From NCBI GenBank assembly GCA_051294375.1, contig JBJCIZ010000708.1, positions 1 to 11,983 on the forward strand: 11,983 bases of DNA, in the 5' to 3' direction. The position numbers and the translations under genes are program-made. The notes under the pieces are model-generated. The model was not told the DNA's origin and did no database searches. It saw only the letters and a program-made list of their open reading frames with translations. This DNA is from Paraspadella gotoi. Its lineage: Eukaryota > Animalia > Chaetognatha. This document shows positions 2,130-11,728 of this stretch, in pieces. Within the stretch, counting starts at the first letter, position 1. Each line of letters opens with the position of its first letter.

Positions 2130-2172
2130 ACGGACATGTTTCGGCTTGTAGTGTTCAAGCCTTCATCAGCGT
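2130..2172 (-). ncRNA. Minimal type I hammerhead ribozyme of PLE
   Basis: Minus strand reads ACG-CUGAUGA-A-GGCUUG-AACACUA-CAAGCC-GAAACAUGUC-CGU. Complete core, perfect 6-bp stem II, palindromic ACAUGU stem III, GUC triplet, 3-bp stem I ACG/CGU. Confidence 0.88.
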
Positions 2173-2627: not shown

Positions 2628-3173
2628 TTATGCAAATGAAGGACATTGACGAAGGTGACGGGTCATTGGCGCGTCAATGGTTGAGAGGAGAGTAAATGCC
2701 GCATTGGGGATTGTACCAGGAGGAAAGATCCCCAGGGCCACTCTTATATCTCTTTGGCCTGATACGCCTGCCGGCTGCCCTCTTCTCGCCTGCTGGCGAG
2801 GCGGGCGGTTGTCCATTCTTGCCGCTTTTGCGACAGGAGTGACGGACTCCTCTCCCTCCTCCTGAAGCTGTTATTGCTGAGTTGCTTCATCTGAGTGAGA
2901 GGCATCGTTTGTCCATTGCCTGCGCAAGGGTCTCCACCTGTCTCGTTGAGTATAGATAGGGTAATCATTGTGCGGGTGTGGTGGCGGCGGGGCCTCCACC
3001 ACGCTTTTGATAAGCGTATCATAGCTTGGAGGGAGGTCGAATCGTCCTCCATCACGGTTCAAAGAGGGCTCGAGAGCTTTGATGTAAATTGCTTCTCTAA
3101 TACCTCTTGAAAACCAGTTTTGGTCATGGGACAGCACGAGACAGTCTGACTCCCTGAACAGATGGCCTGTACA
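2628..3173 (-). pseudogene. PLE ORF 3' fragment: GIY-YIG endonuclease C-terminus plus low-complexity extension
   Basis: CTGHLFRESDCLVLSHDQNWFSRGIREAIYIKALEPSLNRDGGRFDLPPSYDTLI matches the PLE endonuclease pattern GH.F...v.iL....W..R.ikEAi.I....P.LNRD.G...L...Y. ORFs 2871..3137 and 2628..2816 share a frame, separated by one TAA at 2871-73. Confidence 0.85.
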
Positions 3174-3269
3174 GATGGTAAAAATCTTAAAGGAAGAATA
3201 AATAAATTCAGCCTAATCATAGCACAGTCTCTCACGAGTCAAAGTTCAACTGACAGAAAAAAAAGTGAC

Positions 3270-3400: not shown

Positions 3401-4454
3401 AGAAAACTTAGACAACCTCAGCAAAATTTAAAATTACCTGAATTTCTTAGGACGTCTCACTATTAAATCTGTATAATTAGGTAAAATTATTACTACGTCT
3501 TTGATTTTTTCAGGCAATAAAATACTACTAATTCTAATATACCTTACAAAATTTGAGTTGAAAATTCGCGTTATTGCAGTTTTTAGAAAGGTTTAAAAAA
3601 TAGGTGTTTTTAGCATTTTTAGGGCTTTTTTGGGTCTGTATTTCTTTCATGGGTTATCCAAATTTAAAATTTTTTTATATATTTGTAATCAGTAACATTT
3701 CACCAATAGTTTGGCATAAATTTTTTTTAAAAAAATATTATTTATCAAAAAATCATATTTTGTAGTAATATATTAAAAATCACTATTTAGTTAAATAATA
3801 AAAAATTATAATTTGATTACAGGAATAAAATTGCCTATCAATCAACTATTAATTTCTATAATAAAAAGTGAACTTAAAATAAAAAATAAATAATAAGCTA
3901 ATTATTATAATTAGCAACTATGCATAAATTAATAAAAAAAATTTTTTTATTCAGTCTAACACTTTACCATTAGACAAGTAATGTTAGATTAATTTTTAGT
4001 GAGAAAAAAAATTATATCGTTCAAGTATTTTGAGCAGAGTATGCAAATTAAATTTTTGTTTAAAAATAATGCTCAAAACAAAACTTCAAATTTTTTTTTG
4101 AAATATAGAATGGGGAATAGACCATACCGAGTTCCATCCCACACATGCATATCAAGTCATTCCATTCATTATTATAGAAGATATAGCTTCCCTGGACTTA
4201 TGAAGGAAAGCCAAGACCGGTACTGTATCAAGTTCGAAATAAATAAATATATAAATAAATATATAAACAAATAAATTTATAAATAATATATAAATGAATA
4301 AAAAATAAATAAACTGTTACGATAGTAGAAATAATTACAAAAATTAACTAGCATCATTCTTTCAACTCGCATCATTCTTTCACTTAATTAATTAAAACAT
4401 TCATGAGTAAGCATAAATAATAAAAATTCTAGTCAACTTGACTTCGATTTTTTT

Positions 4455-4772
4455 CATGCAAACTCATTTCCACTCCTAGATTCCCATCGAAACTTTATAT
4501 CGTGCTCAATCACACACTTTCCTACCCACACAAAACTTAATTTCAATCCATCCATCCAATTATGATTAATTCGATTAATTATGGCTAAAATTTTAAAAGA
4601 TTCAAATAAAGTGATTATGTTTTTTCCATTTAAACTCATTCCACTCGCACGATTCCATCGAAACTTCCATCATGCAACTTCTAACCACACAAATTTCATT
4701 CCAATCCATCCATCCATCCATCACGAAGAATTGGAGCTTTTTGCTAAGGCGGGACAGACAGACGGATGGACA
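4455..4772. mobile_element. Second, partial copy of the HINE-like element at 1-677 (same orientation)
   Basis: Subrepeats AAACTCATT(T)CCACTC at 4460 and 4632; CACACACTTTCCTACCCACACAAAA and CAATCCATCCATCCA shared with 205-480; ends in GGGACAGACAGACGGATGGACAT, like 492-535. Confidence 0.8.
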
Positions 4773-4859
4773 TAGAGTCTACATAGCAAGTAGAATATAC
4801 TGGCTTGCTCATGGCGTTACGGTAAATCCTCAAATGACATGTTTCAATTCTGTGTTGCG

Positions 4860-5680
4860 AGAGAGAGAGAGAGAAAGAGATATATATATATAAAATGGTT
4901 GCCAACAAAGAACTAAGAAAATAAAATAAGTTTTGAAAACCAAAATGGTGAAAATGAAATTATGAAATTGTGAATAGTTGCCTCACTTTCTGACTGATTT
5001 TAAAAATGGCGACAAAAAAGATTCAAAAATTGTTTATTACAGTTTAAAATGGGCAACAAGGGAGTAAAAGCATTTAATTTGTTTATAAACAAGCGCAAAT
5101 AAAACAAAATATTGGTTAAAAATATAAACGGTCCTAAAACCATTCGAAGTTGGAGGCAACTGCCGGACAGTAATATCGAGTTGATGCTGTTTGGATCAGG
5201 GATAAATTCTTTAGGGAAAATACTACACAAATGTCCATTGAGCCTGTTGCACCTGCCAAGAGCCTTCTTCTCACCTTGGGCAGTCATTGTTGTGGCTTCT
5301 TTTGCAACAGGAGTGACGGACTCCTCTTCCTCTATCTAAAGTATTCTTTTTGAGGGACGCCCGTTCGTGGAGACAAACTGAGTTGCTTCAGTAGGGTTGA
5401 CCTTATTTTGCTTCCCTTAACTCTATCTCATCTCTTCTTACGCCCCATCCACTCTCCATTCTCAGTTCTTTGTTGGAAACCGTTATCTCTCTCTCTCTCT
5501 CCCTCTCTCTCTTTCTCTCTCTCTATCTGTTTTTCTCATCAAATATTTGGTAAAAATCTAATTTTAGTTTTGGCTGATGAAAACTCACCAACATAGATCT
5601 GAAACATGTCTGGTGTTTGAAACCCAAAAATTGTTGTTTGTATACAATAAATTATAAAAACTTTTGTTTTCCTTAAATTT
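4860..5680. mobile_element. Decayed second PLE copy with inversion (4860-5395 minus, ~5405-5680 plus)
   Basis: TTTTGCRACAGGAGTGACGGACTCCTCT and CTGAGTTGCTTCA are shared with 2826-2889 in the same orientation. 5468-5680 matches the reverse complement of 2075-2255: CTTTGTTGGAAA, (CT)n, GCTGATGAA...GAAACATGTC, AAAACTTT...CTTAA. Confidence 0.75.
5571..5613 (+). ncRNA. Degenerate hammerhead ribozyme homologue
   Basis: CTGATGA(5574-80) and GAAACATGTC(5601-10), with the same 20-nt spacing and flanks as the 2130-2172 hammerhead; stems I and II no longer pair well. Confidence 0.6.
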
Positions 5681-10766: not shown

Positions 10767-10849
10767 TTCGTAGACGTTGATCAAGGGTGAGAATCGCCAT
10801 TCCGCTGAAGACAAAATTAAGATAGGGTGGAAGCAACAATTTTCAGATT

Positions 10850-11131
10850 AAGAATGAATTTATTCTTTAACAAGGATCACGTCAGGCTCACCAGTGTGGA
10901 TTAGGCGCTAAGTGGGCAGAAGATGACTAATTGACTATCCATAACTTCTATAACCCCCTCTAGCAGACATGGAAAGGGTCCTGGGCTTGGAACCAGGCTT
11001 GAGGGTTTGCCACGCCCCCAAGGCGGCTTAAGGCCGTCCTCACTCTTCCCGCAGGGTAGGTACCGGGTTGGGATTGAACCCGGTACCTAGTGGTCATGAG
11101 CTGATGGCTTTACTCAATGAGCCACCGGGTC
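10850..11131 (-). mobile_element. tRNA-derived SINE (Met-like CAT loop) with structured body
   Basis: Minus strand GACCCGGTGGCTCATTGAGTAAAGCCATCAGCTCATGACCACTAGGTACCGGGTTCAATCCC. A box TGGCTCATTGAG (11124-11113), B box GGTTCAATCC (11080-11071), followed by a GC-rich body. 3' end approximate. Confidence 0.75.
10971..11050 (-). ncRNA. Twister-ribozyme-like motif in SINE body
   Basis: GGGAAGAGU-GAGGA-CGGCCU-UAA-GCC-GCC-[UUGGGGG..CCCUCAA]-G-[CCUGG-UUCCAAGC-CCAGG]-ACCCUUUCC. The order UAA..GCC-P3-G-P4/L4 matches twister; P1/P2 imperfect. Confidence 0.55.
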
Positions 11132-11728
11132 ACAACTGAAAGAGTCATGCTTATAGGCGGGGTGAACCTAGGCAATGCCCGACTACAGTTATAAACATTA
11201 AACAATAACAATGAAAAGGCTCAGATGCTAAGTCTATTACAGTGGTAATTTGCAAGGTCAACAGTTCAACGGGGAGAATTGAATTGAAAATATAATTGTG
11301 AGCTTTAGGTACAGTAGCATCCGTCTAGAATTTCTGAGACGGCAAGCTCTGTAACTCGAGTACAAATTATAATTTTAAAGAGAGCTTTTGTCTTGATATC
11401 GAGTACACATATGGCTACTAAAACCTTTCAAAAAAACTCAAAATTATATTTTTAATGGTTGGACAGGCTTATTAGACCAATTTTGGGGTGGGAAATTTGA
11501 TGGTGAGGTCGAAATTGCTCAGTTTAGTCGAAGTTGACTACCGGGCCCTGAACGAGCATTTTCCAATTTTTCCCACATTTTAAAACGTTTAATATCATTA
11601 TTCTATTTAAATTATTTTTTTAAACTAAAGAAAAAGTAAATTACACTTTTTATTATATAAACTTTAATATTTATCATAATTGTATAAAAATGTATAAAAA
11701 TATATTTAATATAAACTTTTTGCTTTCA

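Follow-up and report, generated by a model that had tools for sequence, protein, structure and literature searches.

The window, an 11,983-nt stretch of DNA from the chaetognath Paraspadella gotoi, carries on its minus strand a copy of a SINE-like repeat in which a tRNA-derived head is followed by a core laid out like a type-P5 twister ribozyme. This core is tentatively read as an attenuated, likely dimer-dependent type-P5 twister within a SINE built like the schistosome element Sm-alpha, the ribozyme being a prediction and its cleavage a model.

The element and its family

The copy in the window spans positions 10876-11187 (minus strand, about 300 bp), as delimited by a depth plateau, a pile of loose contig ends at 11187 and joints that skip the element. 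It reaches farther than the 10971-11131 given in an earlier note on this DNA, as family contig depth places the limits at about 10876/10895 and 11187. Family depth fades on the left near 10895, where most copies appear to end, and the present copy extends about 19 nt further. Contigs were taken from four (X4, X5, X6 and X9) of the nine runs of one organism in which the stretch occurs. Two runs of other organisms, X10 and X11, contributed no matching contig, which does not prove that the family is absent from them. X9, which is presumed by guess to be RNA, was treated as an additional contig set. Depth summed over the element was about 9,000-11,000x single-copy depth, and as overlapping contigs inflate this sum it was read as an upper-bound estimate of thousands to 10^4 copies. 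The element is a high-copy family, of roughly 10^4 copies at the upper bound. It is short, non-coding and dispersed, the flanks of its copies being unrelated, and it lies in a window that is AT-rich, repeat-rich and without clear genes.

The tRNA-derived head is located at 11056-11131 (minus strand) and has a Pol III A box at 11124-11114 and a B box at 11080-11070. A tRNA-like head with both boxes is what is expected of a SINE, and together with the copy number and the dispersed contigs it bears out the earlier description of a tRNA-headed high-copy repeat. The fold z of the head is -5.55, and ARAGORN found no intact tRNA. Its 3' half is a perfect 13-bp hairpin (11088-11056), which derives from the T-arm and the acceptor 3' strand. 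One subfamily, represented by 36 contigs in X4, has a different B-box region. The element is presumably transcribed by Pol III.

The family ends sharply at 11187, where 160 contigs stop in X4, 105 in X6 and 24 in X9. This end lies 56 nt upstream of the head and not at the head itself, where the 5' end of a tRNA-derived SINE would be; contigs pass through this family sequence (11132-11187, minus strand), most copies keep it, and it varies between subfamilies. Although the element resembles a SINE, its 5' end and the expected start of a Pol III transcript do not coincide. Neither poly(A) nor a T4 terminator was found in the element, including its variable 3' body and tail (10876-10973, minus strand), and the first T4 is at 10816. 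No LINE-related 3' tail or simple-repeat end was seen at this copy, nor was a target-site duplication or flanking direct repeat found there. Tandem arrays are probably rare or absent, since no tail-to-head junction occurred among the 15 of 117 joints listed and the loose ends at 11187 shared no common consensus beyond that point.

The element sits inside another repeat (10816-10875 and 11194-11400). Joints from 10875 to 11201 or 11207 bypass it and represent empty sites in the host repeat, perhaps also at this locus. As the joints omitting the element in X4 and X6 have about single- to two-copy depth, the insertion at this locus may be polymorphic.

Parts of the twister-like core

The letters that the earlier note had described were all found where it had placed them on the minus strand, and they can be read there in 5' to 3' order as follows. 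The 5' strand of P5, GCGGG (11048-11052), would pair with 10978-10974, a helix that is also present in the predicted dimer fold. It is followed by an AA linker and the 3' strand of P2, G-N-G-U (11042-11047), in which N is position 11044 and is likely bulged. GAGGA (11037-11041) supplies the general-base G, an A and the T1 strand GGA. P1 is collapsed to six bases (11031-11036), CGGCCU in this copy. UAA (11028-11030), invariant in X4 and X5, contains the predicted scissile bond U11030/A11029, in line with the cut-site consensus in the available text of PMC8501958 and PMC5408937. The sequence GCC GCC (11027-11022) begins with the 5' strand of P2, which at 3 nt is one short, and includes the GC of T2 (P2 strand and T2 GC together at 11023-11027). 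P3 (10998-11022) consists of the 7-bp hairpin already described plus a closing C11022-G10998 pair, 8 bp in all, with a variable 9-nt loop at 11014-11006. P4 (5 bp, CCUGG/CCAGG) and its loop L4, UUCCAAGC, which offers UCC for T1 and GC for T2, occupy 10980-10997, and an A with the 3' strand of P5, CCCUU in this copy, completes the core (10974-10979).

The conserved nucleotides of L1 (UAA, GA-RRR) and L4 (U-YYY-AA-GC) are therefore present in P5 order, the P3 and P4 stems have the expected form, and the complementarity for both T1 (GGA/UCC) and T2 (GC/GC) is available, as had been pointed out earlier. Two helices depart from the consensus. Instead of four (rarely three) direct pairs, P2 has two direct pairs and a third across the bulge (G.U, C-G and C-G), and instead of a P1 hairpin a single molecule can form only one pair around a 4-nt loop, while two molecules can form six. 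A sequence-only type-P5 descriptor had one match in the window and none in 200 shuffles, with an analytic expectation of 2e-8 to 2e-6 matches per window; it was composed with the window already in view, and its fixed letters are those of the twister consensus. The twister-like motif is not here by chance, and its identification as a type-P5-like core is upheld by strand order, conserved nucleotides and the descriptor. No hammerhead pattern was found inside the element.

Variation within the family

Alleles were depth-weighted and unlinked. Position 11031 is G instead of U in 98-99% of depth in three runs, and P1 is the perfect palindrome CGGCCG in about 98% of depth, which supports the suspicion that P1 could dimerise; the self-duplex is worth -10.7 kcal/mol for CGGCCG and -8.7 kcal/mol for CGGCCU. 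At 10975, G replaces U in 97-99% of depth and completes P5 as GCGGG/CCCGU, next to the AA linker. Both U11031 and U10975 are private to this copy or to a small subfamily, and the present copy, with these and A11044, is likely dead. The majority alleles favour this P5 over the closing helix GGGAAGAGU/ACCCUUUCC of the earlier note: its 8 of 9 pairs are indeed present in this copy, but they rest on minority alleles, the majority form retaining 7 of 9, and such a helix would tie up the P2 strand.

At position 11044, C makes up 75-84% of depth and A or U the rest, which is likely the variability expected for a bulge in P2, and G11027 is replaced by A in 3-7%, turning G.U into A-U. There was no allele at 1% or more in GAGGA, P4 or L4. 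Nor did any indel, insertions included, reach 1% in the family, so the P2 strand noted earlier as one nucleotide short is fixed family-wide. Common variation was restricted to the flanks, the P3 loop and the P2 bulge. Within the 62-nt core, each of the three common alleles falls in the 9-nt P3 loop (p = 0.002). In X4, 14 sites are polymorphic at 10% or more: one is in the 76-nt head, 13 are in the other 149 positions and none is in the 66 paired or conserved twister positions (p = 0.025 for this set, which was drawn up after the data had been seen; p = 0.056 for the core as first described). Three alleles of at least 3% occur at paired sites (11051, 11036 and 11027) and all preserve pairing; pair-breaking alleles occur at low level (G11024A, 0.8-1.5%; G10975A, 0.7-3.1%). 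The conserved twister positions and both pseudoknots are thus present without a common pair-breaking allele. The youth of the family makes invariance weak evidence, and as sites may also be linked the evidence of selection is moderate; we infer selection on the fold in master copies. Two further structures were considered and rejected. An alternative P2 formed with the downstream GGCU is disrupted at 10967 in 10-27% of depth, and the majority form lacks the GAAA of a plus-strand hammerhead (CUGAAGA near 10920).

Comparison with natural type-P5 twisters

In viral contigs, scans found 101 and 7 loci, to which phage locus L006 is added. The latter is a type-P5 twister that has the exact P4/L4 19-mer of the element and scores 49.6 bits against Rfam twister-P5; a second locus with the same P4/L4 19-mer, L005, had no Rfam match. 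Of 90 distinct phage cores, 17 were set aside; in the other 73, P2 is paired throughout, with four pairs in 62 and three in 11. The pairing of GAGGA with UUCC and of GAGGG with UCCC holds in 73/73 cores with paired P2 and in 86/90 overall, and the window complies with this rule, which agrees with the T1 pairing proposed for it. In the 37 phage GAGGA cores with paired P2, UUCC accompanies GAGGA in all, and P1 is closed by C...G in 35, like the family majority. Among the linkers of phage P5 cores, AA is the most frequent (12/62). The natural three-pair P2 stems pair without a bulge; these cores, which contrast with the four-pair consensus, are L020, L068, L092, L093 and L108-L114. Several phage contigs bear two or more P5 twisters.

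The P1 region is 14-30 nt long in all 73 phage cores, in a search that allowed lengths down to 4. Prokaryotic genomes contained 35 loci with a P1 region of 2-13 nt, none with a fully paired upstream P2; the shortest plausible case, L144 with 12 nt, looks real. A descriptor with a 6-nt P1 had no match in viral contigs or prokaryotic genomes. Its four metagenome matches were rejected, three being type-P1 twisters and one a chance match, and none is a copy of the family.

The search with Rfam twister models that the earlier note had proposed did return twister-P5, with a match to P4/L4 only and a score of 15.4 bits (E 0.79, 351-nt search), below the gathering score of 37.6; this score is for the present copy and not the majority form. 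A whole-window Rfam scan gave no twister match. A custom model was built from 28 phage cores, and the window copy was left out because MAFFT misaligned it with them. With this model the copy ranks first in the window (22.6 bits, E 9e-5), and for comparison six held-out true P5 twisters score 39-57 bits and loci with L4 alone 12-21 bits. On these values the copy is twister-derived by its parts and a poor member by score. It shares with type-P5 twisters (RF02684) the strand order, GAGGA, UAA, T1, T2, the P3 closure, the P4/L4 (an identical 19-mer in phage L006) and a P5 with AA linker. It differs in a P1 that is 6 nt and self-complementary, as against 14-30 nt in phages and 12 nt in the shortest prokaryotic case, in a 3-nt P2 with a bulge, in a score under the Rfam threshold and in its place in a eukaryotic repeat. 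The element is twister-like in layout and fails strict membership on P1, P2 and score.

Folding predictions

The folding models were nested and without pseudoknots. In monomers of the 90-nt core, a decoy hairpin, GAGG-CGGC/GCCG-CCUU, has a probability of 0.88 for this copy and 0.53 for the majority, and the range is 0.53-0.93 across majority and window forms; it probably hides the core in monomers. P2 is predicted with a probability of 0.00 in monomers and of no more than 0.04 in dimers, as against a median in phage cores of 0.97 for stems of 4 bp and 0.70 for those of 3 bp. The two-molecule minimum-energy fold of the majority 90-nt core contains the P1 duplex, the full P3, P4 and the GCGGG/CCCGU helix. 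The intermolecular P1 duplex of this 90-nt core has a probability of 0.34 for the majority, 0.83 with A11027 and 0.0 for this copy and three other allele forms, and it falls to 0.00 in the dimer of the whole 291-nt element. Global fold stability of the core was not above that of shuffles (z -0.10 to 1.15). These models lend weak support to dimer use and are real evidence against easy folding.

Other features of the window

The stretch 1730-1870 on the plus strand holds a second tRNA-like head (fold z = -3.86), then GCAGU and GAGGG, then a 7-bp hairpin and a 5-bp stem that carries the loop UCCGAAGC, with ACUGC as the closing strand. The arrangement weakly resembles the L4/P4/P5 part of a twister and lies in another SINE-like element; it scores 9.1 bits (E 0.25 window-wide) and has no Rfam twister match. 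Should CCC be restored in the consensus of its family, SINE bodies derived from twisters may be a recurrent feature of this genome.

Minimal hammerhead patterns occur at 2133-2169 (minus strand) and 5574-5610 (plus strand); they end in GAAAC-AUGU-C, have a palindromic stem III, and are of the kind linked to Penelope-like elements. The reading frame at 2871-3212 (minus strand) presumably resembles the C-terminal GIY-YIG part of such an element and had no Pfam match. A related 52-nt stretch is found at 2816-2867 and 5290-5341, and an 18-bp tandem repeat with more than 20 units at 1123-1555. The repeats at 180-680 and 4440-4790 carry GACA/GACG microsatellites, with a palindrome at 640-670, and we take them to be like Helentron-associated elements (HINE/Helentron).

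Proposed mechanism and alternatives

In the attenuated twister proposed here, the reduction of P1 to a six-base palindrome and a P2 one base short would keep the fold off in a single transcript, and cutting at U11030/A11029 is predicted only when two copies pair through the palindrome, probably as strand-swapped dimers like those of minimal hammerheads. More speculatively, the cutting of tandem or paired transcripts would release unit-length RNAs; these might close into circles and serve as templates for a partner reverse transcriptase that begins at a fixed internal point. Penelope-like relics are present in the window, and Penelope-like enzymes copy from a fixed internal start (PMC11167929). 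Such a cycle, like that of Sm-alpha (PMC6765202) or of retrozymes, would explain why 56 nt upstream of the promoter are retained and why poly(A) and a target-site duplication are missing. The invariant core, the GAGGA/UUCC rule, the C...G closure of P1, the palindrome in 98-99% of depth, the P1 duplex in the dimer fold of the 90-nt majority core and the three-pair P2 of 11/73 phage cores argue for this reading. In the available text of PMC5408937, P1 is described as dispensable for twister chemistry, and the suggestion is passed on that the active site may be disrupted by a P2 deletion of any kind. The near-zero P2 probability, the fixed P2 deletion, the Rfam score far below threshold, the custom score near that of L4-only loci, the low-level pair-breaking alleles and the whole-element dimer duplex of 0.00 all count against it. 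The fuller claim, that a Pol III-driven mobile RNA is the twister counterpart of Sm-alpha and amphibian retrozymes and cuts only as a strand-swapped dimer, dependent on concentration or tandem arrangement, is rather unlikely as it stands.

The claim that the element sheds its tRNA head, that is, that single transcripts cut efficiently, does not agree with the family data and is very improbable, even though the catalytic bases are intact, P1 can be dispensed with and the 6-nt link could bridge its position. If the head were shed and the 3' piece copied, many insertions starting at 11029 would be expected, as for Perere-3, an RTE element whose copies start at the cut site (available text of PMC8501958). 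Neither a depth step nor, among the six best-supported per run, a pile of loose ends was seen at 11029/11030, the smallest pile at that rank comprising 18 contigs in X4 and 11 in X5 (350 further rows lie below), while 160 contigs end at 11187 in X4. This result concerns inserted copies only, because contigs cannot show RNA ends. The decoy hairpin also speaks against cutting in monomers, and promoter and tail would be separated by it. Truncation of the SINE is the expected result of an efficient ribozyme behind its head (Kojima, PMC5786205, in the portion available), and attenuation fits the full-length copies for this reason. In the RNA from which copies are made, the fold must therefore act slowly, act only under certain conditions or not act at all. 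The last of these, a twister dead in the whole family, is the main rival and is doubtful though by no means far-fetched: P2 deletion and P1 collapse would have switched the ribozyme off, and an ordinary SINE-like element would have survived, its sequence retained as a structured body domain or merely through the youth of the family. P2 never forms in the folding predictions, its one-base deletion is fixed, no head-shed copies or tandem junction occur among the listed loose ends and joints, and SINEs are argued to avoid active LINE ribozymes (PMC5786205, same portion). A deletion between the GGCC arms of a phage-type P1 (e.g. L063, L097 or L102) would, moreover, leave CGGCCG. However, variation at master level avoids the catalytic core, including the unpaired catalytic bases and the palindrome, and a relic would have no need to keep G11031 at 98%.

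Two further alternatives concern the origin and movement of the element. It had been suggested that a partner LINE such as RTE supplied the core from its 5' UTR; the core would then be of type P1, and the upstream GAGGA incidental or due to duplication. RTE 5' ends carry twisters (PMC8501958, PMC7761336), RTE 5' UTRs are often the source of SINE bodies (PMC5786205), each as given in the available text, and there is a downstream GAGGG at about 10960; the topology, however, is that of P5, and this origin is most improbable. RTE twisters in the available part of PMC8501958 are of type P1 with their GAGGG strand downstream of P4, and the sequences listed there have CCC loops, whereas in the window the T1-matching strand lies upstream and UUCC fits GGA, not the downstream GGG. 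No P2 3' strand with GA-RRR was found downstream of P4, GCC has no partner ahead of the downstream GAGGG, copies do not pile at the cut site, and TTCCAAGC has no occurrence in the available supplement of that S. mansoni study. The downstream GAGGG register mentioned earlier is set aside on the same grounds, given the 37/37 association of UUCC with GAGGA. Scarcely more probable is a DNA-moving element, Helitron- or MITE-like and non-autonomous, or a plus-strand RNA ending at 11187, with the tRNA-twister cassette as cargo. The sharp end 56 nt upstream of the promoter and the missing poly(A) and target-site duplication would suit it, as would a 10-nt match of the 11187 end to the Helentron-like element at 587-596, but this match (E 6.2) is at chance level. 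The element lacks a CTRR end, and TGT...ACA is all that it has of a terminal inverted repeat; carriage as cargo would leave selection on the minus-strand fold unexplained.

Relation to known elements

A close likeness, on the available parts of the sources cited here, is to Sm-alpha of Schistosoma (PMC6765202), which also combines a Pol III promoter and a small self-cleaving-type motif in one short repeat and in which, as here, cleavage would put the promoter at the 3' end of the unit; the element differs in having a predicted twister, not a hammerhead, and no tandem copies among the listed joints. Amphibian retrozymes and Penelope-like elements carry minimal, dimer-dependent hammerheads (PMC7229834, PMC7761336) that resemble it in the design of the cut-site helix, which in those of the axolotl is one base pair capped by a palindromic tetraloop (PMC7229834). 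These hammerheads belong to another ribozyme class, and retrozymes are reported as promoterless and tandem. The T-variant twisters of the RTE LINE Perere-3 (PMC8501958) likewise lie in a non-LTR retroelement and have a weak P1, but they are of type P1 and at the 5' end, whereas that of the element is of type P5, internal and behind a tRNA head. SINEs with LINE-derived bodies (PMC5786205) and the Meta, Deu, V and CORE SINEs (PMC4824008) share the tRNA head, structured body and tail; the element differs by its 56 nt upstream of the head and by the lack of a recognised LINE tail. The idea that Meta, Deu, V or CORE domains are twister-derived was dropped, as the available MetaSINE supplement (PMC4824008) contains no L4 motif. 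The literature covered, in which subscription journals are thinly represented, contained neither a twister in a tRNA SINE nor a twister that depends on dimers, nor any type-P5 element from a eukaryote; preprint supplements or older alignments may list eukaryotic type-P5 examples.

The twisters described in animal retroelements are only type-P1 motifs that trim the 5' ends of LINEs. Non-autonomous retroelements that bear a ribozyme are a known kind, and the present one adds to them a type of ribozyme, a placement and a form of P1 that are unreported. The family, with about 10^4 copies and a full type-P5 core behind a SINE head, needs a means of restraint, as an active ribozyme would destroy the SINE (PMC5786205, in the portion available). 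If the palindromic P1 ties cutting to the pairing of two RNAs, this would be a new working mode for twisters and a natural switch that responds to RNA concentration. It would then be the first dimer-dependent twister, and hammerhead and twister would have converged on the same switch in animal retroelements. If the ribozyme is dead, the family would still be a clear case of a ribozyme-born SINE body, and a rare answer to the question of where the middle domains of SINEs come from.
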